Shown here one piece after another: positions 8,164-47,652 of a stretch of 64,000 nucleotides of DNA; within the stretch, counting starts at the first letter, position 1, and each line of letters starts with the position of its first letter. The notes beneath the pieces were generated by a model. The model made no database searches, was not told the DNA's origin, and saw only the letters and a list, made by a program, of their open reading frames with translations. The stretch spans positions 1-64,000 of the forward strand of contig DAIDJN010000019.1 of assembly GCA_027451365.1 (NCBI GenBank), given 5' to 3'. Source of the stretch: Phycisphaerales bacterium. Its GTDB lineage: Bacteria; Planctomycetota; Phycisphaerae; WQYP01. Position numbers and translations under genes: made by a program.

Positions 8164-8462
8164 GGTCACGTCTGCCAAAGTTAAGGTAACGCGCGGAAGA
8201 GCCGCCACAGTTTTATGAGGGGTATGGTATCCGATAGGGAACATTGAACAAAGCCGTCCGATGGGCAGTGGATTGTGGCGCGGATGGCGGTTGAGGCGGC
8301 GCCAGCAACACCGATCGTACGGATAGACGCAGAGCTTAACGTCACGCCGGAAAAAGACGAGGGCCATCGTGAAAAATGAGGCGCCAAAAGACCACGCGCC
8401 TACTAAAGTTTCATTGACTGTGCTACACTGCTGCCCAAACAATATGGCAACGGAGTGATGAA

Positions 8463-27662: not shown

Positions 27663-27859
27663 ATCCCCTCCGACCAGCGTCCCGGCCAATGCTCCCATCG
27701 CGATCTGCTTGCCAGGTTTTGATTGCAGCTAAAAGCTGTGGTCTGATAAGGCCCGTCCTTAAACATGTCAGGTCATAAAATTGACGGCCGAGGCGATGAA
27801 AGCTATCCTGCGCCTGCCGTACAGGATGGTTATCGTGTCGCTTGGAGAAATTTATATAT

Positions 27860-29851: not shown

Positions 29852-31939
29852 TTATAATCCTTGTCCGCCGTGCAGGGTGTCCAGCGACTGATACTTTTTT
29901 TCCCGGGCGATGCGCTTCAGAAGTCTGATCCGCAATTCCTGTTCGTGGCGCGGCAGTTTTGTTGCGGGTGTCAGCAGCTTAATCCCCTGCTTCCAGCTAT
30001 CAAGTGCTAAGCTGTTCTCATTTAGCTTATGGAGCGTATCGCCAAGGTGCAGAAATTCCGCGGCATTTTCACCGCCGGGAAGTGCCACGGCAATACGCAA
30101 TTCTTCAAGTGCCCGCCGGAAATGCCCAAGCCGATAGTAAATCCATCCCAGCGTGTCACGGGAAGCGGTATCCCGCGGGTATTCCCTCACCGACAGTTTC
30201 GCCATGCCCAGTGACTTGGTCAGATGCATTCGCCGCTGCGCCCAGAAAAACGCCAGATTATTGTTCGCTTCGGCATTGCTCGGCTCGATAGCAAGAATCC
30301 TTTTCATCTGTGTGACATAAGTGGTCGTATCGCCCTGTTCGTAGCTCAGGTCCGCAAAGGCTTGAATGTCCGCGATTCGCGGCGCGGGCTGGTAGGCCAG
30401 ATTGTGGAGGACAGCCAGCGCCCGCTTTGGCCTGTTTACCTGCTCCAGAAAATGTACATTCAGGCGTTTGACCCAATTCCGATTCGGCAATTTCGAGCTT
30501 AACTTTGCCAGCCAATCCGCTGCTGCGATCGAATGGTGCAGTTGCAGAAGCAAGTCCACATACATGACCTGACGGGAACTGGAACGAAATTCCCGCTCCG
30601 CCGCCGCGCGGACGCTGGCCATCGCCTTGTGAGGATGGCCGTTCGCAAGCAGGCTTTGCAGAAGAGCCGCCATGAGCGTCGGATCATCCGGGCGTTGAAA
30701 AAGAGCTGCGTGAATATCCTTTAAGGATTGTGCGAACGCATGACGGGCAAGGTCGCTTTTCCAGAGAGCCATCGCGATTCTTTTATCACGCGGATTGTGC
30801 TTCGCGGCGTTTCGCAGCAGTTTATCCGCAAGAATACTGTTTCCAGCGACCAGCGCATGATTTGCCGCAAAAACGATGCTGCGGGAATCCGTCGGAAAAT
30901 TCACCGCGTAAAGGTGTTCCAGCCTCTGTGTCAGGACGGTATTGTTTTTATTTTGCGCGATTCGCAATAGGCCGCGGTAAGCCGGCGCGAAATCCGGAAA
31001 CAAATTCAGCAGAATAAGGAGTTCATGAATTTCCGGGCGTTGCTGGCCGCGTGCCCGATATACTCTGGCCAGCAGCCAATATCCCAGCAGCCTATGTTTA
31101 TTCATTCGCTGATATGCTGTCGCTAATCGCAATGCGGAGTCTGTCCGGTCCTGACCCAGGTCCATGGCCAATTGCATGACCAGCCGGTCCGGGTGGTGGC
31201 TCAAATGCCGGATGCCGGTACGCAATTCTTTACTGGCGGCGGCAAAATCGTGCTGCAGAAATAATTCCCCGGCAATAAATTTCTGTATGCCCGGCAATTG
31301 CGAATCTGAATTTTCGGCCGCGTATCCGAAGCCCGTGGCCGCCAGATGGTCTCCCGCCGCGCTGGCCACAATCGCCAGCAAAAAGTACCGCCAGGCTCTT
31401 TTCCGCTGAATTAGCGTGCTGGAAATCCGATTTTGTCCGACGGCCGCCGAGGCGGGCAATCCGGTGTGGTGGTCGCCCGTTGCACGTACCAGGTTGGCCA
31501 ACTCGCGTTGCGTGGGATATGGCCCGATCAGCACATACAAATCGTTCCGCACCACGCCCGCAGTTAGGATGCCATTGGCCGCCGCACCGGCCAGCAGTTG
31601 GAGTGCCGCCCCAGTCCTGCGCTGCTGTCGGGACAGGGAAAGATATTCCAGCATTGTGGCCGTGTCAGTCGGATGAGCATTCAGATATTGCTGAAAATGT
31701 CGCAGGCTCGCCGCCCACTCTCCTGTGGTTAATTCGTGCCGGGCTTTCGCAAGAAGCCGCAGCATCGCTGGATTCACCGCCCCCTGGGCGGCCGGTTTGA
31801 TGGCGGCCACCGTTTCGGTCTGGCACATTGCGGCGTTTGCCGCCAGAAATACCGCAGCGGCACCAGCCCACTTCAGTAGCCATCCAACACGCCAAAGCCG
31901 GGGTTTGCGTTGTGCCGAATAGCGGGTGGTGATCTTCAT
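29852..31939 (-). CDS. Exported tetratricopeptide repeat protein (start uncertain, 31939-31960)
   Basis: Signal peptide; helical repeats; ANNNLAF..A, DTLGWIYY, HLGD C-terminal TPR pattern. Confidence 0.8.
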   Translation of the reverse strand: MKITTRYSAQRKPRLWRVGWLLKWAGAAAVFLAANAAMCQTETVAAIKPAAQGAVNPAMLRLLAKARHELTTGEWAASLRHFQQYLNAHPTDTATMLEYLSLSRQQRRTGAALQLLAGAAANGILTAGVVRNDLYVLIGPYPTQRELANLVRATGDHHTGLPASAAVGQNRISSTLIQRKRAWRYFLLAIVASAAGDHLAATGFGYAAENSDSQLPGIQKFIAGELFLQHDFAAASKELRTGIRHLSHHPDRLVMQLAMDLGQDRTDSALRLATAYQRMNKHRLLGYWLLARVYRARGQQRPEIHELLILLNLFPDFAPAYRGLLRIAQNKNNTVLTQRLEHLYAVNFPTDSRSIVFAANHALVAGNSILADKLLRNAAKHNPRDKRIAMALWKSDLARHAFAQSLKDIHAALFQRPDDPTLMAALLQSLLANGHPHKAMASVRAAAEREFRSSSRQVMYVDLLLQLHHSIAAADWLAKLSSKLPNRNWVKRLNVHFLEQVNRPKRALAVLHNLAYQPAPRIADIQAFADLSYEQGDTTTYVTQMKRILAIEPSNAEANNNLAFFWAQRRMHLTKSLGMAKLSVREYPRDTASRDTLGWIYYRLGHFRRALEELRIAVALPGGENAAEFLHLGDTLHKLNENSLALDSWKQGIKLLTPATKLPRHEQELRIRLLKRIAREKKYQSLDTLHGGQGL

Positions 31940-32274
31940 ATTCGATAACTCCGGAATCAACAGTCAGCATATTGTAGTCCGTTATCGGCGTATCGTCGCG
32001 AAGCCCGACATTCGGCATTTATCGGATCTGCCCGTCTTGGTCCGAAGTTGTCCGATTGCGTGCGGAATGGTTCGTGAAGAACAACTGTGAAAGTCTGTCT
32101 GCCGGCTTGTGACCGTGGTCCCAGGCCGCTTGGAATACTCCATCTGTTCGCTTTCGGTGGATCGTCCGCTCACACATAAGTGTAGGTTGAGCCTTCCGGT
32201 AAAAAGGGGCACTCTTTTTGCTTGCCGCCAGAACGAGCATTTTTGTGGAGGCGGTCGTCCCACGTGCGTGCCTT

Positions 32275-33708
32275 TTATTTGCCGCCGGCGCGGGGCTCGG
32301 CTGGTGAAAATCCAATGGAGCGCAACCTTAGCCATGCCCCCGGTTCGCCGGCCTTCACGGGCGCGATCATAATCTGCGCAATGTGGCCCCGATAAGCGGT
32401 CGAGGCACTTAGTCTGATGGCATAATGGTGATAATGTCCATCGCCGATGATTTTAAAAGCAATGCTGCGTTCCGCGGCAAAGCCCGTCTGCCGCGTGTTG
32501 CGCCAGAACATCCTGCCGCTTTTGCGGCTGGTTTTAAAAGCCGCGTCCATGTAGAGAACCGGAGCCTGCCGGGCCGGCCAGAAAGCGGAAGGACCGACCA
32601 ATTCCGGGTGGTGCCCGGCAAGCGAAATATTCAGCCGTCCTTTGACAGGCCAGCCTGTATCGATTGCGTCGTGATAGACCCAGCCCTGCCGATCGCGGGT
32701 AAATGTCCATACCGGTGGGCGCGGCCGCTTTGCATGCCGATAAACAAAATCACGAATATCCTTCAGATTGCCCACAATTAAAACATAATGGTATTGATAT
32801 ATAATATTGTGATCAAGAATCACAGATTGGTTGGGAGCCATATAGCCCGTTTGAGCGCTGGCAGGACCGCCGTGGCCGGTTTGCGCGCCAAAAAAGCCGC
32901 CGGAGAAATCAAAAGTACCCGGTGACCAGACGCCGATTCCGTTGTCATTGCTGTTTAACATGGCCGCCCAATTTTCTGTGGCGTGAAACGGAATCCAGGG
33001 GTCGCCGCGCAGTTTGCCCGCGAAAACGGCCTGTTCGCGGGCCAATGCTTGGCGCGTGTCAAGGAACGTGAGTGGCCGATGGGTGAAAGGCCGATTGCCG
33101 GTATATGAGACCAGCCGCCAGTATTTGCCAACAGTATAAATGGCTGGGCATTCCTGCGGCCGTCCGGGGTATTGCGTGTGATCCATCCGGTGAAGAATGG
33201 TGGCGCACCGTACATAGATGGCGTTGTTGTGGAGTCTAATAGTGCATTGAAACGTGCAATGTGCCGGAACATTTTTCAGCGGCCAGATCATCGGAATACA
33301 GCGTACCACCAGACGCGACGCGGTCTGGTGGAAGTAGGTTATTTTGCTCCGAAAGCCGAAGGCGTCGCCGCACTGAATTGGATTCCATCCGAGGCCGCGC
33401 CATGCCGGCGCAATTATTTTGCCGGGTGGAATATACGGATTCGGGCCTGAATAATCAGACATTTGAATCTCTCTGCCAAGATCGCAATGGTTAATCAGAT
33501 TGGTCTTTTTTCCAGACCGGGAAATACTGGTGATCGCGCCACCCATGGCCAGATTGACACCCACCCGCAGTTTGCCATTATCCAGATAGCGCATGACCGG
33601 CGCGGGTGCGGGCTTGGCAAAACAGCGACTGATTTCCAGTCCGCGGCCAGGCATCAGAATGATAATTGCGACACAGGCCATCCAGCGAAACGGGTAGGAG
33701 TAAATCAT
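32275..33708 (-). CDS. Secreted protein of unknown function, probably carbohydrate-related
   Basis: Signal-like N-terminus; long ORF with LDNGKLRVGVNL..GGAIT, DLGREIQ, WNPIQ.GD, QECPAIY; aromatic-rich beta C-terminal module. Confidence 0.7.
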   Translation of the reverse strand: MIYSYPFRWMACVAIIILMPGRGLEISRCFAKPAPAPVMRYLDNGKLRVGVNLAMGGAITSISRSGKKTNLINHCDLGREIQMSDYSGPNPYIPPGKIIAPAWRGLGWNPIQCGDAFGFRSKITYFHQTASRLVVRCIPMIWPLKNVPAHCTFQCTIRLHNNAIYVRCATILHRMDHTQYPGRPQECPAIYTVGKYWRLVSYTGNRPFTHRPLTFLDTRQALAREQAVFAGKLRGDPWIPFHATENWAAMLNSNDNGIGVWSPGTFDFSGGFFGAQTGHGGPASAQTGYMAPNQSVILDHNIIYQYHYVLIVGNLKDIRDFVYRHAKRPRPPVWTFTRDRQGWVYHDAIDTGWPVKGRLNISLAGHHPELVGPSAFWPARQAPVLYMDAAFKTSRKSGRMFWRNTRQTGFAAERSIAFKIIGDGHYHHYAIRLSASTAYRGHIAQIMIAPVKAGEPGAWLRLRSIGFSPAEPRAGGK

Positions 33709-33779
33709 ATCTGTTCCTGTCACCTCATACGACCAAAATGCGCAGTCCGCGTATCACCAACCGAAATCGGGAAGCGATC

Positions 33780-34014
33780 ATGCACGCCCGTGATACACCG
33801 TCTGAACCGGTATCGCCATCTCCGCCCGCACAACCTGTTGAAAACCCGGCACAATGTTGGACTCCCGCGGATACGCCAGACTGCGCTGAAGGTCGTCATT
33901 ATTGACGCCCGGCATGGCGATTTCCTCCGGGACTTTCCTGCCGGTTTGCACGGATTATTCCAGCAAATCAGTCGCGAGCAGATCCTTGGCTATAAAACTT
34001 CAAACCGGGAATTG
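33780..34014 (-). pseudogene. Remnant of a XylR/LacI-type ligand-binding domain
   Basis: QFPV*SFIAKDLLATDLLE*SVQTGRKVPEEIAMPGVNNDDLQRSLAYPRESNI with two in-frame stops. Confidence 0.6.
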
Positions 34015-34771
34015 CATTGACCCGATTTACCCGCGGACGTCGGCCCTCCAGTTTTTCTTTCCGCGCTCACAATAATGAACGACCAATAGCGATTTTTGTT
34101 GCCGTCATTCCAGATTTGTGGCGGCTCTTAACGTATCTTCAAACCCGGCCCCTCTCATTCCCGCATACTCGTGGTAATAGTCACCAAAAAAGCAAATTGC
34201 CGGATGCCCAACCCTTGAAAATATTCCTTCGCCATGCGTCCTGCCGCGATGTTTCCCGCGCATAGCCGTGTTGTACGTTTAGTCGCAAAGCCCTCGGATG
34301 GTTGTCCAAACGCGCATTGCGACAATCTTTCTATCAGTCACGACGGCCATTCTCTGGACTTATACCCTTATGAAAGCGCCTTTACAATTCACGAAATCAA
34401 CGCATGAACAGACAATACAATTGACGTGCGCCAGCTGCGCCTTGGCACAAGCCCGCGAACAGGCGCTTTCTTTGTGAATGCGGCCTATGACGCACCGGTA
34501 ACTTTCCCAGGCTGGCTACAGCACAGACCACGGCTGTTCGTGAAGGCTCCATCGGGCAAGTGCCGGTATCATGTGCTGGCTGTCATTCCTATCATGACTC
34601 ATGAATTGGCGGGGGTGGACGAATAAAGGCTGTCTCAATTCCCAATAAATATGCAAACCGCCGAACAAAATGGAGGTGTCGGACTTGGGCGGTTCGCTCA
34701 ACACGGTACTGGAAAGCGCCCGCGACCAACGCCGCACGCTGGTGCAAGATTTGGTGACCGCCCAACACATA

Positions 34772-36106
34772 TTACCAGCCCGAGGGCTTTTTGATGGAAT
34801 ACTGCGGGTCTTTTACAAGATGCAGAGAAGCCACTTTGTCCGGATGCGCGGGATTAAACCGGCCGGTTCCGGGACGGATGAATTTGGCCAGGCCAAGGTG
34901 GTCGGCGCGAATTCCGATCAGTACGCATTTGGCAATTTCATAGGCGCCGTAGTCGTCGTTATGCGTGCGGTCCACAAAGGCAATCGCAGATTTTTCGGCG
35001 CCAAGGGCGTTAAAAAATGTGGTGCTTAAGGCGTTGAGGTCAATCAGCGGCACATTCTGCTGTTTGGCAATGAGGCGCATTTCGGCGGGAAAGCCGTCCA
35101 GCGTGTTAATCTGTTTGCCATGTTTGTAAATGCGGCGGGCCATGGGGGTTACGAGTACGGGGATGGCACCTTTGGCGCGGGCACCATGAATCATGGTCAG
35201 CAGGGATTGCCGATATTCGTTTTTCGGACCCGCATGCGGGCCGCGTTCATGCTGGTCGTTGTGGCCGAATTCGATCAACATATAATCGCCGGGTTTAATG
35301 AGACTCATTATTTTCTTATAGCGCTGCTCCCCGATAAAACTGTTGGCGGATTCGCCATCTTCGGCGTAGTTGTCCACCACCACACGGCGCGGAACAAAAA
35401 AGCGGGTGAACATCTGCCCCCAACTGCACCAGGGTTCAAAACGCTGATCGGTGTCGGTGGAATCTCCGGCAATGTAAACCGTTATTGGATGCCGGGATTT
35501 GGTAATCGTCATGGCGCACAGGCAGGCACGGGAATTGGCGAATTCAACAGTCAACTTGTTATCCCATTCCAGAGAACCGATTTCGCGACCTTTCAGTCGC
35601 ACGCGGCCACCGGTGGAAATTTCCGGCACACGTGTATTGACCGTAAAGGTGCGGATCACGAAATGGCCTGGTTTGGTAACAATGCGGCGGAACATCAGAC
35701 GTCGCTGTTCGGCTTTTACTGTTGTGACGCTGGCTGCTTTGGCATCTCCCAGTGTGACGGTGACGTTATAATTGCCGGGCGCCAGCCGCACTGAAAAAAA
35801 GAATGGATGCCTGCTGGTTACAAAATGAGCGTCCAGACCGCGCGGCGTGTGCCGATTGACACCTTTGACCTTAAAACCAAGATCAAAACCGTAGCCGCGG
35901 CGGGGCGTATATTTTGTGTCGGGAAGAACCTGGATGTATCCGGGAACAGTCGTACCCGGTCCGAATTGAAATTTCAGCGGGGGTGTCAACTGGGCCGCGT
36001 GCGCCGCGGGAACCATATTCAGGGCAAGTAAAAGGCCGGTTGCCGCCGCAAACCGGTGCCCCAAAAAGCTTGCTGCAAACCTGCTGAATTGCGACATGTG
36101 GTTCAT
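34772..36106 (-). CDS. Secreted rhamnogalacturonan acetylesterase (CE12, SGNH) with N-terminal beta-sandwich
   Basis: Signal peptide AHA; AGDST..DQ..EPW.SWGQM, EFGHND, D.TH...YGAY. Confidence 0.88.
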   Translation of the reverse strand: MNHMSQFSRFAASFLGHRFAAATGLLLALNMVPAAHAAQLTPPLKFQFGPGTTVPGYIQVLPDTKYTPRRGYGFDLGFKVKGVNRHTPRGLDAHFVTSRHPFFFSVRLAPGNYNVTVTLGDAKAASVTTVKAEQRRLMFRRIVTKPGHFVIRTFTVNTRVPEISTGGRVRLKGREIGSLEWDNKLTVEFANSRACLCAMTITKSRHPITVYIAGDSTDTDQRFEPWCSWGQMFTRFFVPRRVVVDNYAEDGESANSFIGEQRYKKIMSLIKPGDYMLIEFGHNDQHERGPHAGPKNEYRQSLLTMIHGARAKGAIPVLVTPMARRIYKHGKQINTLDGFPAEMRLIAKQQNVPLIDLNALSTTFFNALGAEKSAIAFVDRTHNDDYGAYEIAKCVLIGIRADHLGLAKFIRPGTGRFNPAHPDKVASLHLVKDPQYSIKKPSGW

Positions 36107-36146
36107 TTAAATTTCCTTGCTAAGATTTACGCGGCATTTCTATGGG

Positions 36147-39100
36147 TTAGCACGGCCCACTTGCTCGTTTGTTGCAAAAGCGGCTTCGCCGTCGGAGCGC
36201 CATCGCCCCAAGCCCCAAAAATGTAATCGCTAATTCACCCGGTTCGGGCGTGGGCGTAAGCATGATGCTGTGTGGGCTATACTCAAGCTGATAATCCGCC
36301 GCCAGCCCCGACACAGAATTGAATCTGCCGGTCAACGTGCCGGTAAAAGTGGCAATCGTATAGCTGCTTCCGTCATAGCCGCCGGCCAATTCTGTCAGAT
36401 TCAGCTTGCTGGTATTATTCAGCGCAAGGTTACCCGAGATCACCAGCAGATTGCTGGTACCCTTGGATCCTAAATTGGCCATCAATGTGCCGGCATTGTC
36501 GAGATTACCCGTGATATGCAATTCGCCTGCGGGACCCGCGGCCGGATCCCCGGCCGAAATAACGCCGTAATTGGTTACATTCGCCGTGATAATGCCAGTT
36601 CCGGCCAGTTCACCGCCGGTGCCGGCGGCAAACGTGGTGTTGCTTTCATCGGTGGACACCACGATGCCTGCCGCATCAACCGTTAGAGACATGGCGTTGG
36701 TAACGCTGCCGTCAATCACCAGCGTTCCGCCGTTTATTTCCAACCTTCCGCCAAAGCTCTCCGGGCCGCTTAGCGTTAAAGCGCCCGTCCCGATTTTATA
36801 GAAATTGGTGATATAACCGCTGGTCCCATTCAGCGAGCCGTTAAATGTGGTGCTGGTATTCAACCCGCCCACCACATAATTCAGGGCGTGGTCCAGTGTC
36901 GCGCCTGGAGCTGTCTGCGTGCCCGCCAAAGTGCTTTCCGTCGTGCCGGTTAACGCCCCCAGAACAACGTTATAGCCATAAGGTGCATGGTCTGTCTGGC
37001 CGTTGAAATAGGAAAATGTGATGGAATCCGTGGCGGTTCCATTCAGATCAAGCGTGCCATTGTTAAGGTAAAATCCGATCACGCCGGTCGCGTTGGATAC
37101 CCCGTCAAAACCGACATTGGTGCCATTCCTGCTGGCCATCAGATTAACCGTACCGGTAAATGCGGACCAGTCGCCACCAATCAGGTTTCGCACATAAAAT
37201 GCACTGATGTCCAGCACGCCGCCACCAGACAGAGTGCCGGAGTCAGCCATGTTTCCGCCCAGCACCGCATAATTGTTATTTTCAAACACAATATTGCCGG
37301 TCTTACCGGTTGGCAGATACAAATTGTTTAATATTTCTCCGGAGTCATTCATGGTGCCCCCATTAATAGTTATGGTTCCCACGCCCGCCCCGGAAACATT
37401 ATTCAGATTCAGTGTCCCGGCATTCAGTGTCAGGCCGCCGGAAAAGGTATTTGCGCCCCCCAATGTCAGCGTACCGCTGCCATTTTTAATCACGGACAGC
37501 GTTCCCACGGAATCCTGTATGACTCCATTGAAGGTGCTGTCGGAATTATTGCCACCCAGCGTAAGGGTGTAGTTTCCGGTATTGGCTGGGCTGTTGTTAT
37601 CCACAGCGCCTGTGCCATTCAGCGAGCCAATGGTGACATTGTTGCCGCCTATGTCCAGCGTAGCGCTGGAACTGATATTCAACTCGGTTGCCGCAGGCAG
37701 CGCCGAAGCGATTCCCAGGAACAATGTGCCTGCATTCACGTTGGTTGCGCCGGAATAAGAATTGGTGCCATTAAGAATAATGGTGCCGGCACCCGCTGCC
37801 GTCAGTGTGGCCGCGCCCGTACCGTTGTCCGTAATATTCGCATTTATGGTCAGGGCCGCGGCGGTGGAATAATTCAGCAGCACCAGTTCACCAGGATTCC
37901 CATCCGTTGGGCCGCCGGCGGTAAGCATGCCAGCGGTACCGCTTGTGCCAATAACAAGCCCCAGCCCGTTGGCCGCCTGCATGACGCCGCCTGCCGCGCC
38001 AAGCCGAAGCGTTTGGCCGGTGCCCACAGCCAGCAGTCGCACCGTGGTGGTGTCGGTATCCAGCAGTGTATTGATATCTGTTGTGCCGTTGGCCACCGCA
38101 ATATTTCCGGTGGAGGCGGCCGTGATACGGAAATTAGAACTGGAGTGATAGCCGCTCATCTGGCTGATAACGGTGTTACCGCCGGCAAAATCAAGATATT
38201 CGGCGTAAGGAACGACGTTGTTGTTTGATACGGTGGCCCAATCGGTCTGGTTGAAAGTGGCCCAACCGCCAATTATGCCGGTGTTTGCATTGTTGGTCAG
38301 GCTGTTGCCATTGACCGTTCCACTTGTGGCAAAATCGATGGTGGCATTGTTGCGGATCAGCGGGCCGTTGATGGTTAATGTATGGCCGCTGCCTGCAATC
38401 CATTCGTCGCTTCCATTGTTCAATGTCAGTCCATTGCCAATGGTGATGTTGCTGCCGGAAGCGTGTATGTCGCCATTTAGAATGAGGGCGGAATCAAATA
38501 CAATTCCGCCGGTTCCGGTCGCGTTTATTCCGCCGGACCCGACAGTCAGCGTATGGATGCCGGCACCAATTGTAACGGCAGCGGCGGAGGTGCTGTTGAC
38601 ACTGTTGACAGTCTGATTGGCACCAAGAGTGACTGTGGCGCCGGATGCAAAATAGACATCATCCAATGACTGGGGTGTGTTGTTATAGGCAACTTGGGAA
38701 TTTGGGGATGTCGACCAGTTTCCTTTGGTATTCCAAGTGTTATCCGCGTCGGCCCCGCTCCAATATACGCTGAAGCCCAATTGTATCTGTTCGCCGGCAA
38801 TGGCGGCGGCATATTTTTCAATGTTGTTGTAGCCGGTGTTGTTGTAGTCTCCGGCGGGGTTGGCGAAATCCGCAGAGGTCAGACCATGCTGCTGAATCCA
38901 GGCTATGGGGACTGAGCCGGACTGTCCGCCCAAGGGTAGCGAGCCTCCCTGCAATGTGCCAAAGCCCGCATTGGAAATGCCGGTGTCCGCGGGGCTGTTT
39001 AAAATTCTGCCGCTGGTACCTAATGATTGCACGTTAGCCAGCACCTGGGCATCAACGGAATTTAGATGCAGGGAATCGCCAGTGTTGGCTACATCATTGG

Positions 39101-40079
39101 AAAAGGCCTGCAGGGCGGTTTTGGCGTTCTCTGTATAGAACGGTGTGCTGGCCGATGTGACACCGGTCGGATATACCGACGAACCGTTCAACACGCCGTT
39201 GCGGCTGGAGTTTTCCAGGTTTCCGCTGGCATAGGCGTTAATGTTGGAATCCATCTGGAAGAAGGCATCACCGGGGTTGGTGGTGGATGGCCCGGTGATA
39301 AAATAATTGCCGACGATATCCTGATTAAAATGGCCGCTTGTGTCGGCGACTGTATATCCAGCTTCAAAGTTATAAATAACATTATTAACGAACTGCGCGT
39401 CGGCTTTGGCCATTGGATTGCGGTTATGCGCGCTGACCAGGAGATTGTTAAAAAAGCTGGTCGGTCCGGTCTGGTCATGAATATTGAAGGTTTGGGCGGC
39501 GATGGGGTCGGCCACAATGGAGTTCTGAATGGTGATATCGCCGCCGGTGCTGCCGTTTCCCACGGCATCAATATTGTCGTAAGGGCCGTATTCGATGGAA
39601 ACGTGATCCAACAGGGCATTGGTGGTGCCGTACATGTCCACGGCGGTTTTCTGCACAGTGCTTGGGCCGCCCTGCAGGACACGAAGGTATTGGACAATAT
39701 CATTTGTGGAATTGGACAATGACAGATTGTATCCGTTGGTGCCCCCTTGAATGGCAATGCCCTGTCCCGGCGCGGTCTGCCCGAATATGGTGACATTGCT
39801 GGCGATGGCGAGTTCAGATTGCAGATTAATGACCCCACCGACATCAAATACCACAATTGAATTGGCCTGGCTGACGGCCTGGCGGAACGAGCCTGCTCCT
39901 GCATCATTAAGATTGGTGACCACTTGAACCGTGCCGCCGCGGCCGCCCGTGGCGTTTGCGCCAAAACCAAGTGCGTCAGGAATGGCCAGTGGTGTGCCGG
40001 CGCGGATTGTCTGGATCGAATTGGAAATATATCCCGCGGCTGCCAATGAAAGTAGTGCGACCAGGTGGTACCGCTTCAA
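36147..40079 (-). CDS. Pectate lyase (PL1-like) plus autotransporter-associated beta-strand repeats plus PEP-CTERM anchor
   Basis: GFGANATGGRGG..VVTNLNDAG.GSFR, GQTAPG.GI, RNP; repeats K.G.GTLTL.G.NTFSG; C-terminal TPEPG-hydrophobic-RRR. Confidence 0.88.
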   Translation of the reverse strand: MKRYHLVALLSLAAAGYISNSIQTIRAGTPLAIPDALGFGANATGGRGGTVQVVTNLNDAGAGSFRQAVSQANSIVVFDVGGVINLQSELAIASNVTIFGQTAPGQGIAIQGGTNGYNLSLSNSTNDIVQYLRVLQGGPSTVQKTAVDMYGTTNALLDHVSIEYGPYDNIDAVGNGSTGGDITIQNSIVADPIAAQTFNIHDQTGPTSFFNNLLVSAHNRNPMAKADAQFVNNVIYNFEAGYTVADTSGHFNQDIVGNYFITGPSTTNPGDAFFQMDSNINAYASGNLENSSRNGVLNGSSVYPTGVTSASTPFYTENAKTALQAFSNDVANTGDSLHLNSVDAQVLANVQSLGTSGRILNSPADTGISNAGFGTLQGGSLPLGGQSGSVPIAWIQQHGLTSADFANPAGDYNNTGYNNIEKYAAAIAGEQIQLGFSVYWSGADADNTWNTKGNWSTSPNSQVAYNNTPQSLDDVYFASGATVTLGANQTVNSVNSTSAAAVTIGAGIHTLTVGSGGINATGTGGIVFDSALILNGDIHASGSNITIGNGLTLNNGSDEWIAGSGHTLTINGPLIRNNATIDFATSGTVNGNSLTNNANTGIIGGWATFNQTDWATVSNNNVVPYAEYLDFAGGNTVISQMSGYHSSSNFRITAASTGNIAVANGTTDINTLLDTDTTTVRLLAVGTGQTLRLGAAGGVMQAANGLGLVIGTSGTAGMLTAGGPTDGNPGELVLLNYSTAAALTINANITDNGTGAATLTAAGAGTIILNGTNSYSGATNVNAGTLFLGIASALPAATELNISSSATLDIGGNNVTIGSLNGTGAVDNNSPANTGNYTLTLGGNNSDSTFNGVIQDSVGTLSVIKNGSGTLTLGGANTFSGGLTLNAGTLNLNNVSGAGVGTITINGGTMNDSGEILNNLYLPTGKTGNIVFENNNYAVLGGNMADSGTLSGGGVLDISAFYVRNLIGGDWSAFTGTVNLMASRNGTNVGFDGVSNATGVIGFYLNNGTLDLNGTATDSITFSYFNGQTDHAPYGYNVVLGALTGTTESTLAGTQTAPGATLDHALNYVVGGLNTSTTFNGSLNGTSGYITNFYKIGTGALTLSGPESFGGRLEINGGTLVIDGSVTNAMSLTVDAAGIVVSTDESNTTFAAGTGGELAGTGIITANVTNYGVISAGDPAAGPAGELHITGNLDNAGTLMANLGSKGTSNLLVISGNLALNNTSKLNLTELAGGYDGSSYTIATFTGTLTGRFNSVSGLAADYQLEYSPHSIMLTPTPEPGELAITFLGLGAMALRRRSRFCNKRASGPC

Positions 40080-40339
40080 TAATGGTTGCTGCGAAATAGA
40101 AAACCCTCCGTGTGCGCTTGCCCCGATGCCATTAACTTTGACTCAGGGTGAACTAAAAATAAAATGGATGCCACGCAATTTGCGTGCGAAGCATATACCC
40201 AACTCGGATTGCGCTGATACATTAACGCCGGCGGATTTTGACACAAACGCGGCTTTTTATTCGGTTTGCCGTCCATCGTATATGTATCGCATAGCTCTGG
40301 CACCATGCGATTTTGCTTCCGCTCACGAAAGTGGAAGAT

Positions 40340-40383
40340 AAAAAAACCGCGCCGGCGGCGAACGGAATCGGTGCCCGGCGCGG
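40340..40383 (-). terminator. Intrinsic terminator after the DUF1559 gene
   Basis: CCGCGCCGG/CCGGCGCGG stem followed by T7 on the minus strand. Confidence 0.65.
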
Positions 40384-40428
40384 CTGACGTTCAAATTGAA
40401 AATCTGGTAACGGAACCACAATCCGGGT

Positions 40429-41313
40429 TTATTTGGCACCTCCGTCATTTGGGTCTGGCAGGATATAAAGCGGTTCCAGGGTGTTTAGCTGAAGGGACAT
40501 CACGTGGCCATCCGCACAGACGAAATTGGCCATTCCAGACGTCGACGATGCGGTCAGCATGTGGCGGAACCGAGCTCCGGTCTTGTACAGGTTGGCGGGG
40601 GCTGGGTAATCGGAATTGCCACCGCTGGCCGGCGAGGCCGCAAACATCTGACCGGTGATGCTGTATTTGCCGCCCGGAATGGAGGCCTTCATGTCGTCAT
40701 CCCAGCCGGACCAGCCAGGTGAACCCCAATAAAACAGCCAATCATTGGTGCCATTCGACCAGTTTTGTGTGGCATCGCCATAAAGAATGCAGTTTCCCGC
40801 GTTGACCACATAGCTGGTGGGCAACGATTCCGCGGGTTGATTCTTTTTCGCACTAAAGTAGCCAAGCAGGACAAATGGGTTGGCTGCGTAATTCAAAGCG
40901 TATCCGGAATTCTGCACCAGCGCGCCTGGATCTTCAAACAGAGAGGCCCATTTGACCTGATCAAATGCGGGAAGCGGCTTGCCCTGCCCATCTTTGCCTT
41001 CATAACCGTAGTTCGTCGGCTGCACGGGTGCGCCGGCATACATGAAGAACAGCAGGTTGGCCCATTCGCCGGCGCGGTAATAATTCGTATCGTAGCCCGA
41101 GGGGGGATAGAACCCTTCGTAAGAATCTGCATATTCAATAGTTAACTGGCCGAGGGATCGCAATCGGGCTTGACACTGAATACTGATTGCCGATTGTTTC
41201 GCCTGTGCCAGTGCGGGCAGCAGCAGCGAAATAAGCAGGGCGATGATTGATATCACCACCAGCAGCTCGACGAGTGTGAACGCTCTGCGACGGGTTGGTT
41301 TAAAGGGACGCAT
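40429..41313 (-). CDS. Prepilin-type N-terminal cleavage/methylation protein (DUF1559 / H-X9-DG type)
   Basis: [30 protein letters not shown]-terminal RH...ANFVCADGHV; GGAGG RBS. Confidence 0.92.
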   Translation of the reverse strand: MRPFKPTRRRAFTLVELLVVISIIALLISLLLPALAQAKQSAISIQCQARLRSLGQLTIEYADSYEGFYPPSGYDTNYYRAGEWANLLFFMYAGAPVQPTNYGYEGKDGQGKPLPAFDQVKWASLFEDPGALVQNSGYALNYAANPFVLLGYFSAKKNQPAESLPTSYVVNAGNCILYGDATQNWSNGTNDWLFYWGSPGWSGWDDDMKASIPGGKYSITGQMFAASPASGGNSDYPAPANLYKTGARFRHMLTASSTSGMANFVCADGHVMSLQLNTLEPLYILPDPNDGGAK

Positions 41314-41358
41314 AAGAAATCCTCCAAAAAAGGAGACGGTGCGAAGCCATAAGAATTT

Positions 41359-41399
41359 AAAACCGGCCGGCCTGCCGCAACGCACGGTCAGGCGGCCGG
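41359..41399 (-). terminator. Intergenic GC hairpin (terminator or mRNA stabiliser) between the PEP-CTERM and DUF1559 genes
   Basis: CCGGCCG..CCTG / CAGG..CGGCCGG stem followed by TTTT on the minus strand. Confidence 0.55.
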
Positions 41400-41414
41400 G
41401 TTAACCATTTTTCT

Positions 41415-43190
41415 TCAGGCAGATACGCGACCACGGCGACGGCCCGCCAGCAGCAGGCCGGCAAAGCCGACGCCGAAAAGGGCCAGGGTAGCTGGTTCGG
41501 GGGTTGCCGTTGCCGAAAGGGTAATGTTGTTGGCGTTGTAGTTGACCGTGTAACCGGCCCCCAATCCACTAATGGTCGCGAAGGTTCCACTCAGGGTTCC
41601 GGTGAAACTCGCGATCGTATAAACGCTGCCATCAAAACTGCCGGTAAGACCTGTTAAATTCAAGGCGCTGCTGGGCCCAAGCGTCAGATTTCCAGTTATT
41701 GCCAGCAGACTGCTGGCGCTGGATGGGCCGACATTGATGTTTAATGCGCCATTGCTGGTAACGTTGCCTATGACTGATAATGTGCCGGTGCTGCTGACGG
41801 CCGGATCGCCAGGTGCAATGATTCCGTTGTTGGTCACGGTAATAGGAAATGAAGCGTTGCCAAGGGTTCCATTGCCGGCTAACGTCCCGCCAGCGCCGGC
41901 TGCAAAAGCCAGTCCTGACTCCATTGTTGTGGCTTTGGTCAGGGCCGCATCCACCGTGATACCCGTGGTGCCCGCCGGCGTTGCGGTGACGCCCAATGCC
42001 CCGTCCACCACAAGCGAGCCACCGTTGACTTCAGTGATTCCCTGGAAATTATCAGCGCCGGTCAGCGTCAGCGAACCGGTCCCGACTTTGTAAAGGTTTA
42101 CCTGACCGGCGACTCCGGCCAGCGTACCTGCGAATGTGGTGCTGGTATTGGCGGTACCAATGACATAATTGAGAACGTGGTACGGGAAGCTTCCATACGA
42201 GTAACCCCCCAATGTGCTGTATTTGGTTCCGGTCAGCGCGCCGATTACCGCGTTTACTCCATTGAGGGTGGATTTATTTTGTTCGTTCTGGTACGAGAAG
42301 GTCAACGAGTCGGTTGCAGTACCGTTCAAATTCAACGTACCGTTGTTAAGATAGAATCCGCCGTTACCCTTAGAATTGCCAGCGGCAAGGCTGTCCTCGA
42401 AACCGTTGAAACCGAGGTCCGTGCCATTTCTGGCGGCGGAAACATTGACCGTGCCAGTAAAGGCCGACCAGTCACCGCCGATATTATTCCGCACGTAAAA
42501 CGCGTTGATGTTCAATGTGCCGCCGCCGGTAAGTGTACCCGTATTCAGGGCATTGCCTCCGAGGGTGTCATAGTTATTGGTCTGCTCCATGACGATGTTT
42601 CCGGTGTTACCCGATGCGACATATAAGTTACTTGTAATGTCTCCTGAATCACCGAGTGTGCCACCATTAAATGAGATAGTTCCAGTGCCTGGATTGGTGC
42701 CCGAGATCAGTGTGCCGCCATTCAGATTGGTCCCACCGCTGAAGGTGTTGGCACTTTTCAGCGTCACGGTGCCCGTGTAGCCGGTATCAAGGTTCAGCGC
42801 TGTGGCGCCGGTAATTCCGGATACATCGCCGGTAAAGTTGGTCAGGGAATAGCTGCCCGCACCAGTCATAAAATCGACGGAAGCCGGGCTGACGCCCGAA
42901 CCGGTGCCGACTGTCAGGGCCAGGTTTGTGGCACCACCGGTGAATTGCACAGCTGAGCCGTCGGTATAGGCGACGCCGTTGGTGCTGGTGGTGGTGTCGT
43001 TCCAGTTCAGGTCGGTGCCGGTGGTGTCCCAGTTGCCATTGGTGGCACCAGTGTAAACGAGTGTGTCTGCCGCAATTGGGCGCGTGCTTAGCATTGCCGA
43101 ACCGGCCAATAGAGCAACCGCCAGTGTAGCGCAACCGAGCAACCGATTGCGCCGGTTGAGCATCATTTGATTCCGCTGCGAACTTGCCAT
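41415..43190 (-). CDS. PEP-CTERM surface protein with autotransporter-associated beta-strand repeats, no recognisable catalytic domain
   Basis: Signal peptide; G/T/N-rich repeats (NTFSGGTNLNGGTL, KVGTGSLTLTG); C-terminal TPEPATLALFG...RRR; GGAGGAG RBS. Confidence 0.9.
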   Translation of the reverse strand: MASSQRNQMMLNRRNRLLGCATLAVALLAGSAMLSTRPIAADTLVYTGATNGNWDTTGTDLNWNDTTTSTNGVAYTDGSAVQFTGGATNLALTVGTGSGVSPASVDFMTGAGSYSLTNFTGDVSGITGATALNLDTGYTGTVTLKSANTFSGGTNLNGGTLISGTNPGTGTISFNGGTLGDSGDITSNLYVASGNTGNIVMEQTNNYDTLGGNALNTGTLTGGGTLNINAFYVRNNIGGDWSAFTGTVNVSAARNGTDLGFNGFEDSLAAGNSKGNGGFYLNNGTLNLNGTATDSLTFSYQNEQNKSTLNGVNAVIGALTGTKYSTLGGYSYGSFPYHVLNYVIGTANTSTTFAGTLAGVAGQVNLYKVGTGSLTLTGADNFQGITEVNGGSLVVDGALGVTATPAGTTGITVDAALTKATTMESGLAFAAGAGGTLAGNGTLGNASFPITVTNNGIIAPGDPAVSSTGTLSVIGNVTSNGALNINVGPSSASSLLAITGNLTLGPSSALNLTGLTGSFDGSVYTIASFTGTLSGTFATISGLGAGYTVNYNANNITLSATATPEPATLALFGVGFAGLLLAGRRRGRVSA

Positions 43191-43509
43191 AGGAAACTCC
43201 TCCAGAAAAGGGCGCCGATAATTCGTGCGTATCACACGATTCGGCAGGCTCAATCTCAACGCTCACCAACACCGACAAGGCATCAGCCATCGAGACCCGT
43301 TTAATTTAGTATTCGCGCCGACGGTCAAACCTTTTGCACCATTCCGATGTTCCGTTCAAGAGCGGCGGAACAGACGCGGGACAGAATCAGGAAAAGTTTG
43401 AACGCCTCTGATTTTTTCAACTCATTCAAGGCCAGTTTTAAGAATCGACCGGCCTGTGCAACTTGTGACGTTTTCCTTCGTATGGCATTAACGTCATCAA
43501 CTTAAAGGA

Positions 43510-43573
43510 AGTATACCCGGCATTTTCAGCATATCTAGAGTATATTTGTGACCACTTGTTATACTTTTGTCGC
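43510..43573 (-). promoter_or_regulatory. Candidate activator-dependent promoter of the PEP-CTERM operon
   Basis: -10 TATACT (43510-43515, minus), poor -35, and TTTGTGAC/TTTGTCGC direct repeats 21 bp apart (43545, 43566). Confidence 0.5.
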
Positions 43574-44192
43574 ATGATTTCCTGGCCTCATGCAGGGTGA
43601 AGTGTCTCTATTGGGCGGTGCAAAGCCCACAGCGAATTGCCGGAAACCTGGTAAGAGATGTCTAAGCGGCCACCCTTGCTCCTATTCACGGCAGCATCGC
43701 GTCGCCACAGCGGCCAAAGCGGCGAATTGATTGCAACTAAATTCCGGCAAAAGCGAAAGCCGCGCATTTATTGCTTTTCATGCGGCTATAGCCCTTTATT
43801 TCTGCAAGCCTGCCGTTCGGATTTATCCGAACCAAAGCGCCATGTCCTGGATGATATTATCCACTGTTCCGTCGACTGCTCAATTGTACAAATGTAGCCT
43901 GTTGTTATAGTTTTGTTGCGCGGGCGGGCCGGCGGCAGTCTTATTGGTCAAATAAACAGACTCTTTCTTCGGTCCGCCGGTGACCGGTTAACGCTTGCAT
44001 GCATCGTTTTTACGGCCTATTATCCTTTTGTCGGATTGCATGGCCATGTCGATATGGCCAATGGCGTTGTTTTTCCGGAGATTTCGCCACCCGGTGTATG
44101 AATAGTAGTGTTTTTGTCGCCCTTTTTCATGCAACGGCCGGCCTGGAATCCGTCCGGTTTGAACAGGAATTTATAGCGACAGGATTGCGGAC

Positions 44193-45050
44193 ATGGCTTC
44201 ACAGGCGATTATCAGTCAGACGCAGGAGCCTTTTGCCAAACGGCTGGATGGTCGAGCCGTCACGCGCCCGCAGGATGAACCGCCGCATGGAATCCCGATA
44301 GCGCTGCGTTCCGCCCAGCACTCGCAAATCAGCCGCGGCCGCTTCGAGCCGCCTTGGTCCAAGCGCATTGTGTTGGCCAATTGGCTGATAAAGGGAGAGG
44401 CGTTGATGGGCGTAGGGGGCCGGCGTGTGCCCATAAAGCCCGGCGATTTTGCATTGTATCTCCCTTCCATGCCGCATCAGATATGGGCGGTTTCCAAAAT
44501 TGTTGAAATGTGCTGGTTTTCGATTGATGGCCCGCTGGCCGAACCGTTTGTTCTGCAATTGAATTTGCGTGCAGGCGTGTATCCGTTTGGTCCCGCGCCG
44601 CTGGCGGTGATTGACACCATGATGGATTCGCTAAGCGACCATACCATTCAGGGACGTCGCCGCGCCAGTCTGCTGGCAATACAGGCCTGGTACGATATCG
44701 CCAACACCATTCGCGCGCCGGAAGTGCATTCGGTCATCAGTCAGGCCCGCCACCTTATTGAGCAGGAATTTTCCGATCCTGACACTTCCGCCAAGCGGGT
44801 GGCCACCAGGCTGGGCTATCATCGTGCGTCATTAAGCCGCATGTTTCATGAAAGTACCGGCGTGACTCTGAAGGATTATCTGACGCAGGTTCGGCTTCAG
44901 GAAGCGCAATCGCTGCTTTTACACAGCGATTTTAAGGTCGCCGATATAAGCCGTAAATGTGGGTTTCTGGAAGTCAGCTATTTTTGCCGCTGGCTGCGGA
45001 AACATACGGGGCAGACGCCATCGCAAATTCGCGAATCCGCAGCGCCGTAA
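44193..45050 (+). CDS. AraC family transcriptional regulator
   Basis: Cupin N-domain (PGD..LY.P..PH); LSRMF...TG.T..DYL...RL..A..LL, CGF...SYF.R...G.TP...R. Confidence 0.95.
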   Translation: MASQAIISQTQEPFAKRLDGRAVTRPQDEPPHGIPIALRSAQHSQISRGRFEPPWSKRIVLANWLIKGEALMGVGGRRVPIKPGDFALYLPSMPHQIWAVSKIVEMCWFSIDGPLAEPFVLQLNLRAGVYPFGPAPLAVIDTMMDSLSDHTIQGRRRASLLAIQAWYDIANTIRAPEVHSVISQARHLIEQEFSDPDTSAKRVATRLGYHRASLSRMFHESTGVTLKDYLTQVRLQEAQSLLLHSDFKVADISRKCGFLEVSYFCRWLRKHTGQTPSQIRESAAP

Positions 45051-46227: not shown

Positions 46228-47652
46228 GTGTCAGACAATCAGACAGTACAGGAAACCACAGTGACGGGTCTGCTGGAAATTACCGAAAAAGGCCAGGGCT
46301 TTTTGCGGTTCGAATCGCGCAAGTTCAAGCCCGTGCCGGCGGACCCCACCGTCTCTGCCGAGGTTATTGCACGGGATCATCTGCGGCCGGGGCTGATGGT
46401 GACGGCCACCGCTAAATCCAATGGGCGGTCACCCGCTCCCGCGGTGATGGACATCGTTTCGGTGAATGGCAAAACCCTTGAAGAATACTGGCAGATGCCC
46501 GCATTTGGCGACCTGACTGTCATTGATCCGCGCGAACGTCTGAAACTTGAAACCGTGGGCGGCCCCATTTCTATGCGTATCATGGACCTGCTGACACCCA
46601 TTGGCCGCGGACAGCGCGGGCTGATTGTCGCGCCGCCAAAAACCGGTAAGACCACGCTGCTGAAGCAGATTGCCGAAGCCACGCTGCGGAACCATCCGGA
46701 TATGAAGGTGTTCATTCTTCTGGTCGATGAACGGCCCGAGGAAGTCACCGACTTTCGACGCACGCTGAACGCGGAAGTCTGGGCGAGCAATAACGATGAA
46801 GATGTCCTTTCTCATGTGCGTACAGCGCGAACGGTTATTGAGCGCGCGCGGCGCATGGTCGAATTCGGCCATCATGTGATGGTGGTGCTTGATTCGCTTA
46901 CCCGGTTGGGACGCGCATTTAACCATTTTGTCGGCAGTTCAGGACGCACCATGACCGGCGGTGTTGACTCCGGTGCGCTGGTTGAGCCGCGGGCTATTTT
47001 CGGCTCTGCACGGAATATTGAAAATGGCGGATCGCTTACCATTATCGCGTCCTGCCTCATTGAAACCGGCAGCAAAATGGATGATCTTATTTTTCAGGAA
47101 TTCAAGGGTACCGGCAACATGGAACTGGTGCTTTCCAGAAAACTGGCCGAGCGGCGGGTCTGGCCCGCGATAGACCTGCCCGCGTCCGGCACCCGAAAAG
47201 AAGAATTACTTCTTGGTGCCACCCATGCCTATAAGTCGGGCATGTTGCGCCGCGACCTGATCGGACGTGACCCGGTTGCCGCCATGGATGTCCTGGTCAA
47301 GGCCCTGTCCCGTTACCAGGCCAACGCCCAGTTCTGGGAGAGTCTGGCCTCGCCGACGAAGCTGGCTGCCCCCGCTCCTTTGCCCGGTCCCAGACCCGCA
47401 CCGGTTGCGTCCAATGGTTCGCCGCCCGCATCGCCAGCAGTCACAGTGCCGGCGGCCAAACCGGTGGTACCTGTGCCACAACCACCCGCCACGCCGGAGG
47501 ACTCGAACAGCCCCACCGTGGGCGTGGCCCGTCCCATGCGAACTGGGCATGGCAGTCGCAGATATTCCAGCCGAGGCCGATCGCAACGCAGTGGTCGCAG
47601 TGGCAGTGGGGGTAGCAGCGGCGGCAGTGGCGGTGGACGCAGAAGGCGCTGA
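46228..47652 (+). CDS. rho: Transcription termination factor Rho, short N-terminus and low-complexity C-terminal tail
   Basis: GFLR, PIGRGQRGLIVAPPKTGKT, DERPEEVT, DSLTRL, EFKGTGNME, SGTRKEELL. Confidence 0.93.
   Translation: MSDNQTVQETTVTGLLEITEKGQGFLRFESRKFKPVPADPTVSAEVIARDHLRPGLMVTATAKSNGRSPAPAVMDIVSVNGKTLEEYWQMPAFGDLTVIDPRERLKLETVGGPISMRIMDLLTPIGRGQRGLIVAPPKTGKTTLLKQIAEATLRNHPDMKVFILLVDERPEEVTDFRRTLNAEVWASNNDEDVLSHVRTARTVIERARRMVEFGHHVMVVLDSLTRLGRAFNHFVGSSGRTMTGGVDSGALVEPRAIFGSARNIENGGSLTIIASCLIETGSKMDDLIFQEFKGTGNMELVLSRKLAERRVWPAIDLPASGTRKEELLLGATHAYKSGMLRRDLIGRDPVAAMDVLVKALSRYQANAQFWESLASPTKLAAPAPLPGPRPAPVASNGSPPASPAVTVPAAKPVVPVPQPPATPEDSNSPTVGVARPMRTGHGSRRYSSRGRSQRSGRSGSGGSSGGSGGGRRRR

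Follow-up and report, generated by a model that had tools for sequence, protein, structure and literature searches.

This report concerns a gene cluster between positions 32,275 and 45,050 of a 64,000-nucleotide stretch of DNA from a Phycisphaerales bacterium (contig DAIDJN010000019.1); the whole stretch is called the window. In this cluster an AraC-family regulator gene is divergent from minus-strand genes for a PEP-CTERM beta-helix protein, a prepilin (hereafter the pilin), a lyase and a CE12 acetylesterase, followed by the remnant of a second regulator and a secreted protein. All seven had been named in a reading made from the DNA letters alone (the sequence-only reading), and the open reading frames (ORFs) of the window and family searches agree with it on presence, coordinates and orientation (Table 1). 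The pectin cluster is real and probably regulated, and it is a good example of a glycan cassette, marked by a pilin, that recurs. The constant element is the pilin and not a pair formed by the pilin and a PEP-CTERM protein, and the conserved core appears to consist of AraC, pilin and CE12. The window genome (G000, 93% complete) was compared with relatives from the Planctomycetota/Phycisphaerae, including G001, a sister species of the same genus.

Table 1. Features of the pectin locus, with positions in the window.
Feature	Position	Strand	Evidence
AraC-family regulator (cupin ligand domain and helix-turn-helix), divergent	44193..45050	+	PF02311, PF12833; 77% ortholog in the syntenic position of G001
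Second operator-like copy, 35 bp before -35 hexamer	43856..43918	-	CRACAAAA copy; not conserved in G001
Likely AraC operator abutting -35/-10 promoter	43510..43572	-	CRACAAAA copy; conserved in G001
PEP-CTERM-anchored PATR beta-helix protein, 591 amino acids, non-catalytic, accessory	41415..43190	-	PF12951, PF07589
DUF1559-like prepilin, 294 amino acids	40429..41313	-	PF07963, TIGR02532; FTLVE start, helix 14-64, NFVCADGH tail
Region that another strain seems to have replaced (pilin head, spacer, lyase signal peptide)	39997..41196		run X2 contigs; P0125
Terminator-like hairpin and U tract, 3' of pilin	40346..40385	-	fold z -2.66
PL1-like lyase domain on PATR beta-helix stalk, PEP-CTERM anchor, 1310 amino acids	36147..40079	-	9BUJ, TIGR02595
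CE12 rhamnogalacturonan/pectin acetylesterase, YxiM-like, N-terminal galactose-binding-like domain	34772..36106	-	PF13472, PF21254
XylR-type sugar regulator pseudogene	33802..34327 (about)	-	tblastn 51% over 148 amino acids to C17:59561-60862
Secreted protein, 477 amino acids, unnamed conserved family, GH174-like fold	32275..33708	-	structure model; 319 homologs

The motif CRACAAAA occurred four times in the spacer between the AraC gene and the first minus-strand gene, against about 0.1 copies expected; copies 3 and 4 begin at 44033 and 44119. Two copies lie exactly 35 bp before independently found -35 hexamers, a type of spacing that is the usual layout for AraC-type activation. The proximal copy, 35 bp before TAGATA-16-TATACT, marks the best-conserved block between the G000 and G001 spacers (39/50 bases, as compared to 31 or fewer in 30 shuffles), and the distance to the first ATG is 381 bp in G000 and 386 bp in G001. 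This block is the likely AraC operator. Scans with the operator matrix turned up no other convincing site, whether in the rest of G000 or near the PL1 and PL4 loci of relatives, and the regulon therefore looks local. With the first version of the matrix, the top off-target matches in G000 (C42:46607 and C29:42303) lay just upstream of two related pilin genes; both sites scored low with the refined matrix.

Only 3 of 200 shuffles folded as well as the hairpin behind the pilin, which was also flagged in another scan; the lyase and esterase may therefore need read-through or a second promoter. A hairpin between the PEP-CTERM and pilin genes was not significant (z -1.42). The sequence-only reading had described the minus-strand genes as a single co-oriented run. 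This stood for gene content but probably not for one unit, given the hairpin after the pilin and the decayed XylR gene with the 477-residue protein gene, which probably form a separate cassette.

Pectin context of the lyase and esterase

The lyase domain was matched to 9BUJ (E 4e-17, profile A5) and to VexL (6FI2; E 7e-6), and the protein falls in pectate-lyase clusters of the Atlas (0.97); a search against PF00544 gave no match. The catalytic arginine of the R-x-P motif is kept (RNP, aligned with RTP, RNP and RMP). The aspartate of the first Ca2+-ligand motif, which we take to be the usual Ca2+ ligand in PL1 lyases, is threonine (KTAV/KTAI) in 4/4 lyase orthologs, as in VexL, and aspartate in 9BUJ and Jun a 1. 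With the usual ligand replaced, the substrate of the lyase is uncertain, and the earlier label "pectate lyase" holds for the family but not necessarily for the substrate. The enzyme is predicted to be calcium-independent. Four sequencing runs (X1-X4) containing about half or more of the window's words are mine-drainage metagenomes, all from one study, and a PL1 lyase without the usual calcium ligand in an organism from such runs is a side product of this work.

CE12 was matched to YxiM (2O14; E 3e-29) and to RGAE (1DEO; E 2e-10), and its SGNH motifs (GDS, G, FGHND and D-x-x-H) align with those of both. All three lyase orthologs found in relatives lie beside pectin enzymes: L050 has GH28 and CE8, L051 and L052 have PL4 (the L051 gene is cut off and was assigned by likeness to that of L052), and L052 also has a CE12 ortholog. 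Orthologs of the beta-helix protein stand directly before a PL4-PEP gene in 2/2 other genomes (G108 and G112). Further pectin genes of G000 are GH28 and CE8 on contig C56, KduI with a GH88/105 protein on C35, and on C51 a protein that shares roughly 70% identity with PL4 lyases. A second pectin locus, with GH28 and CE8, includes a pilin but lacks a PEP-CTERM gene. The pectin context claimed by the sequence-only reading is thus borne out by the PL1-like lyase, the CE12 motifs, the neighbours of orthologs and the further pectin genes, and as a prediction from gene content the pectin reading is sound. In two relatives, the PL1-PEP gene is followed by a gene whose product joins a region of HEAT repeats to a PL4 rhamnogalacturonan lyase (L052:10278-13934, L051:8182-9186).

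The pilin and its partners

The pilin carries a prepilin cleavage and methylation motif with E5 (PF07963, 29.4 bits, cut-off 21.2; TIGR02532, 23.9 bits, cut-off 16.3). The motif and E5, which serve filament assembly, were near-invariant in 33/33 aligned paralogs. The N_methyl start, LLPAL helix and N-x4-DGH tail are those of the DUF1559 family. However, the DUF1559 model PF07596 (SBP_bac_10) gave no match at E<=0.01 and the H-X9-DG model TIGR04294 gave none, and the histidine and DG are kept at a distance of 16 rather than 9 (H251/D268). Of its paralogs, 5/31 matched PF07596 at E<=1e-5, and these share profile A1 with the pilin, while three other genes of G000 pass the TIGR04294 cut-off. Since both models missed the pilin and its paralogs match, it is DUF1559-like only through these paralogs; by sequence, it is homologous to the family but below its models. 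Of the earlier label, "prepilin" was therefore kept and "H-X9-DG/DUF1559" reduced to DUF1559-like. A structure model (pLDDT 88, the predicted local distance difference score) has a helix at residues 14-64, C-terminal strands and a head of about 230 residues, much larger than that of a major pilin and mostly loops. The top 13 structural matches are all pilins or pseudopilins, EpsG and PulG are among the fold matches, and an NCBIfam search gave weak GspG and GspH matches.

The beta-helix protein (591 residues counted from the ATG behind a GGAGG site) is 53% identical over 457 residues to the C-terminus of the lyase and is thus a free paralog of that module, in place of which two other lyase orthologs carry a different module, as judged by eye. 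A PEP-CTERM substrate is defined by an N-terminal signal, a C-terminal tail of PEP motif, transmembrane segment and basic residues, and an exosortase in the genome (PMC1569441; this and the other papers are cited for their accessible parts). The beta-helix protein and the lyase match PF07589/TIGR02595 (23.3 bits for the lyase tail with TIGR02595, cut-off 16), and exosortases are present in G000. An Atlas search with the beta-helix core returned only unnamed PATR clusters. Searches of Pfam and NCBIfam gave no membrane-barrel family match for this protein or the pilin, and a complex prediction of the two (beta-helix residues 40-562, pilin head 35-294) scored 0.00 in two runs, favouring neither side.

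The syntenic locus of G001 retains rho, GDPD, AraC (77%), an intact pilin (79-81%) and CE12 (88%), and has no PEP-CTERM gene. Two queries did not find the beta-helix protein anywhere in this genome (93% complete), and a decayed PEP-CTERM tail of the lyase, a 3' remnant, is left between pilin and CE12; the lyase has therefore been lost there. In G112, the beta-helix ortholog is flanked by GH2 and a PL4-PEP gene, and the 16 kb examined there contain no prepilin motif; in G108 a pilin (a 45% homolog), the beta-helix ortholog and PL4-PEP stand in a row. The beta-helix protein thus accompanies a pectin lyase in 3/3 genomes and a pilin in 2/3, and by this behaviour it is predicted to be an ancillary binding module.

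Linkage was assessed across G000, where profile hits of at least 100 bits defined 38 pilins (12 weaker hits were left out) and adjacency meant a same-strand PEP-CTERM gene within 800 bp. Such a gene adjoins 23/38 pilins as compared to 25/1354 size-matched genes (p 6e-27), and 24 of the 71 PEP-CTERM genes have a pilin neighbour. For 31 regex-defined pilins outside the window contig, the three nearest non-PEP genes on each side were scanned with 20 random anchors as controls; families were counted by eye, gene calls were ORF picks, and one control locus holds a pilin, which makes the comparison conservative. Degradative carbohydrate-active enzymes (CAZymes) made up 25/152 genes near pilins and 4/110 in controls (p 0.001), and sugar regulators 12/152 and 0/110 (p 0.0016); by locus, a CAZyme was present at 18/31 pilin loci and 4/20 control loci (p 0.01). 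These counts support the linkage that the sequence-only reading had put forward as a check: PEP-CTERM genes, CAZymes and sugar regulators all gather around DUF1559-like pilins. Among 19 PEP-CTERM partners scanned, 7 match lectin or carbohydrate-binding-module (CBM) beta-sandwich families; the beta-helix protein of the window does not. Symporters adjoin some pilins (L027, L119).

In relatives, where only the best-scoring loci were taken (20 regions for 41 matches in G001, 20 for 53 in G002, 11 for 126 in G014) and the genomes are kin and not independent, PEP adjacency was 14/23 in G001, 15/24 in G002, 5/8 in G030 and 4/14 in G014, as well as 17/22 in other loci of the family; it was 0/3 in G092/G039, 0/16 in G093 and 0/11 in G073. 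By eye, 8/12 pair loci of G001 map to an adjacent pair in G000. The pilin neighbours of G002 include 10 glycosidases among 69 genes, a count with no matched control. In G093 (L128-L137), the gene after the pilin is often a lipoprotein-like ORF of 130-200 residues (6/16 by regex, more by eye), which agrees with the signal-peptide genes said to flank DUF1559-type genes (PMC8567305) and suggests a lineage-specific choice of the partner's anchor. A metagenome scan with profile A4 returned generic prepilins, not orthologs, of which 3/22 evaluable ones had a PEP-CTERM neighbour.

Three further pilin loci were noted. A cassette of three PEP-CTERM genes and a pilin recurs in G000, G001 and G002 (L001:9214-15597, L103, L119) with no adjacent CAZymes and, in G000, with lptF/G beside it; a non-glycan or core role is possible. 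In G001, one DUF1559-like pilin is the immediate neighbour of a pilB/pilT/pilB cluster on the opposite strand (L097:5164-11002), and its G000 ortholog (C28:5998) is not so placed. Within the window, a second DUF1559-like pilin (57313-58068), syntenic in G001 (L096), has YdjC and glycosyltransferase genes as neighbours and neither a PEP-CTERM gene nor a CAZyme next to it.

The head of the pilin appears to have been swapped between near-identical strains. Two contigs of run X2 are about 99% identical to the window up to 39996 and from 41197, and beyond those ends they continue with 831 and 220 letters that do not resemble it. The interval has no depth in X2, while runs X1, X3 and X4 cover it. 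A depth hole alone is no proof of replacement. The database protein P0125 is identical to the pilin for its first 36 residues (to 41205) and then diverges, to 47% overall. P0241, which differs from the beta-helix protein at 7/591 residues, shares its sources, contig count and longest contig (71,789) with P0125, from which we infer that the two are neighbours on one contig. In a comparison of P0241 with P0274, three of the seven beta-helix differences fall within residues 335-339, in the allele that seemingly travels with the alternative head. In comparisons of species, pilins at syntenic positions and the genes next to them were similarly conserved (median 77% and 74%, p 0.54), and general hypervariability was rejected on this basis; the swap therefore looks like cassette replacement and not fast drift. 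It fits an exposed, selected surface.

Candidate roles of the pilin

The assembly machinery expected for a type IV filament is present in G000, with six PilB/PilT-family ATPases over cut-off, one secretin and one prepilin peptidase, alongside two exosortases (PF09721) and two OprB porins. These gene counts support the sequence-only reading as to machinery and exosortases, and the fold matches of the pilin, at modest Z, point the same way. With about 38 pilins sharing one assembly line, minor or tip subunits are favoured. TonB receptors (PF00593) and SusD (PF07980) gave 0 matches each in G000, with positive Bacteroides controls. Their absence from the locus had been noted correctly, but it is genome-wide and therefore not a feature of the locus; no TonB receptor match was seen in 34/45 genomes of the family, and the other 11 have at most three each.

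The reading we prefer, at a probability of roughly 45%, is of an AraC-activated pectin foraging cluster in which the pilin would be a substrate-specific minor or tip subunit of a shared type IV filament and the beta-helix protein an accessory surface binder. Because the sister species keeps the pilin without a PEP partner and the head was apparently exchanged, the pilin is taken as a sugar-specific grip of a shared retractable fibre and not as half of a fixed import pair. A fragment of pectin (rhamnogalacturonan or acetylated galacturonan) would switch on AraC, which would activate the promoter at 43537. The single prepilin peptidase would cut the pilin, PilB would build it into a filament leaving through the single secretin, and the large variable head would bind the polymer. 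Retraction by PilT would then hold the polymer at the envelope or pull it in. There it would be cut and stripped of acetyl groups by the PL1 lyase, on its exosortase-dependent anchor, and by secreted CE12. An optional surface binder of the SusE/F kind is the role proposed for the free beta-helix protein, and products would enter by routes encoded elsewhere, such as OprB porins and symporters.

Several observations weigh against this reading. The best fold match of the pilin (Z 5.1, root-mean-square deviation (rmsd) 3.5, 120 aligned) is under the tool's caution line of 8, and Foldseek returned nothing at E<=0.001. Close homologs (38-47%) in relatives also lie in mannan (GH76/GH92), xylan (GH10/GH115) and rhamnosidase loci, and in a quick tree with an open backbone the window clade was not joined with support to the PL4-linked clade; head sequence is therefore not visibly tracking substrate, and tracking by pilin clade was not shown by this tree. 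At 13/31 G000 pilin loci there is no Pfam-detectable CAZyme within three genes. The exchange, at a pectin locus, of the resident head for one of 47% identity is explained equally well by phage pressure. Planctomycete fibres that bind dextran are 12 nm wide and have no subunit or gene assigned in the accessible parts of PMC5394234.

A broader form of the proposal is possible, although the odds are against it. In Phycisphaerae, one retractile type IV filament would be re-tipped on demand by private DUF1559-like pilins, one per sugar-regulated locus, each with a head specific to the glycan of its locus. Strains would trade these heads as cassettes while the N-terminal helix stays invariant, and retraction through the single secretin would replace SusC/D import.

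The same genes could be read as a secretion device, which we consider unlikely. The pilin would then be a type II secretion pseudopilin or cargo adaptor, a tip subunit that each glycan locus supplies so that its own secreted enzymes and PEP-CTERM proteins leave by the shared secretin. Genes next to such pilins do almost always encode secreted or surface proteins (those of the PEP-CTERM type in Phycisphaerae, small lipoprotein-like ORFs in G093), and the GspG/GspH and EpsG/PulG matches as well as the single secretin agree with such a role. However, 47/71 PEP-CTERM genes have no adjacent pilin, the beta-helix and PL4 locus of G112 manages without one, and an exchanged head beside cargo that is 99% unchanged agrees poorly with an adaptor specific to its cargo.

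The sequence-only reading had itself proposed that the PEP-CTERM protein and the pilin stand in for SusC and SusD as a capture and import pair. As an obligate two-protein module this is improbable, and the claim is not supported at this locus because each gene occurs without the other in relatives (G001 and G112) and no barrel family match was found in either protein. The high adjacency in G000, with a similar share in G001, G002, G030 and other family loci, the lectin or CBM-type partners, the pair loci retained between G001 and G000, the pilin beside the beta-helix ortholog in G108 and the missing TonB receptor all speak for a pair. Yet the linkage to CAZymes does not differ significantly between loci with and without a PEP partner (13/19 and 5/12, p 0.26), gene order is free (12 upstream, 8 downstream), and TonB receptors are rare throughout the family.

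Quite improbable is a pilin that never polymerises and serves as an inner-membrane-anchored periplasmic oligosaccharide binder or sensor for the regulator or transporter of its locus. The oversized, loop-rich head, the sugar regulators flanking pilins, the symporters adjoining some of them and the presence of Tuwongella proteins of this kind in membrane fractions (PMC8567305) would suit it; the near-invariant cleavage motif and E5 would not, and AraC carries its own cytoplasmic ligand domain (PF02311). Least probable is the absence of any glycan-specific role, with pilins and PEP-CTERM proteins as generic adhesins gathering beside secreted CAZymes in recombination-prone surface-protein islands, because, although some cassettes lack a CAZyme (that on C11 beside lptF/G, conserved in G001 and G002) and the locus gains and loses genes readily, the G001 pilin is the first gene behind a conserved operator, intact at about 80% with both PEP genes gone, and syntenic pilins are as conserved as their neighbours.

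Neighbouring genes and comparison with known systems

At the 3' end of the locus, stops and frameshifts interrupt the XylR remnant, which together with the gene for the 477-residue protein looks like a separate decayed cassette. The 477-residue protein has no Pfam or NCBIfam match, and its 319 homologs are likewise without Pfam matches. Its model (pLDDT 87.5) shows a beta-supersandwich and a small beta domain, with a GH174 fucanase as best fold match (Z 20.9, rmsd 3.3, 257 aligned, 8% identity); no PDB sequence match was found at E<=1. On this model it is a candidate new glycosidase, and the unnamed GH174-like family is a second side product. Orthologs lie beside GH78 in 2/13 loci and beside a pilin and GH92 in 1/13, others adjoin housekeeping genes, and none of 17 flanking ORFs scanned was a PL1 or CE12. 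A role in pectin use is not supported by this context, and the gene probably belongs with the dead XylR gene and not with the pectin unit.

Elsewhere in the window, a co-oriented gene just downstream of the locus encodes a 702-residue TPR protein (29852-31960) with a weak match to PrsT, the TPR protein of PEP-CTERM systems (78.7 bits, cut-off 312). A 611-residue protein (27842-29677) with a Tat-like signal, repeated beta-strand character and no Pfam match is a possible unannotated secreted glycanase. The Rho at 46228-47652 is without the usual N-terminal extension, has a Pro/Gly/Arg-rich C-terminal tail and falls below the short-form model cut-off. A GH43 with a Tat-like signal (48331-50037) has no pilin nearby, and neither does a divergent gene pair for a GDSL esterase and CE7/AXE1 (7489-9428).

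The locus is a small test case, with a predicted inducer and operator and a predicted substrate class; the AraC-pilin-CE12 set of G001 is a natural minimal version of it, and natural alleles with different pilin heads exist. Akkermansia mucin utilisation loci with pili-like genes were reportedly described by Davey et al. in 2023. Akkermansia resembles the present case as a PVC bacterium with pilus-type genes linked to glycan uptake; it differs in having a single dedicated locus, as compared to one pilin paralog per glycan cluster here, a comparison by description only. Akkermansia also has PilQ and PEP-CTERM proteins (PMC4960237). Our literature search found no description of cassettes of pilin, PEP-CTERM protein and CAZyme, although Mahajan 2020 and Davey 2023 may bear on novelty; the accessible parts of PMC11685898 and PMC7397252 hold nothing on pilins in such loci.

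With the DUF1559 family the pilin shares its sequence hallmarks, the dozens of paralogs per genome and the flanking signal-peptide genes (PMC8567305, PMC10632474, PMC4807772). The accessible parts of these papers assign no function to the family and do not connect it with CAZymes or PEP-CTERM proteins. The pilin differs in lying below the family models, and both genomes sampled from family f15 have a small lipoprotein-like ORF, not a PEP-CTERM gene, as the neighbour. The lyase and esterase resemble 9BUJ and VexL, and YxiM and RGAE, respectively, in the PL1 beta-helix motifs with R-x-P arginine and in the SGNH motifs; the lyase differs in its 850-residue PEP-CTERM stalk and shares the threonine at the first Ca2+-ligand motif with VexL.

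The closest precedent for a binding fibre comes from Planctomycetia, in which pili-like fibres bind dextran (Boedeker 2017, PMC5394234) and pilin-like proteins of this "fishing rod" were proposed to capture polysaccharide for transfer into the periplasm (PMC5394234, PMC12078418). That evidence is microscopy with dextran; the present locus adds a candidate gene for which an inducer and a substrate can be predicted. In the accessible literature the genes for glycan-binding planctomycete fibres are unassigned (PMC5394234, PMC12078418, PMC12673574), the CAZyme clusters of planctomycetes are uncharacterised (PMC11131199), and polysaccharide uptake without SusC/D and the role of the largest planctomycete paralog family stand as open questions (PMC12673574, PMC12078418).

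Among polysaccharide utilization loci (PULs), the locus is best set against those of Bacteroidota. A SusC/SusD PUL consists of tandem genes for a TonB-dependent transporter and SusD together with CAZymes for one glycan and a regulator, co-induced by the substrate; on co-induction of the present locus, the conserved operator bears only indirectly. Like Bacteroidota PULs, the locus has a regulator, co-located and substrate-matched CAZymes (here AraC, the PL1-like lyase and CE12), a surface lyase and a non-catalytic surface protein (PMC11131199). In contrast, it has no TonB-dependent transporter or SusD in locus or genome, its anchors are PEP-CTERM tails and not lipoproteins, and its recurring marker is a prepilin without a fixed partner. 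The cluster would work like a PUL, but it is not a SusC/D PUL.

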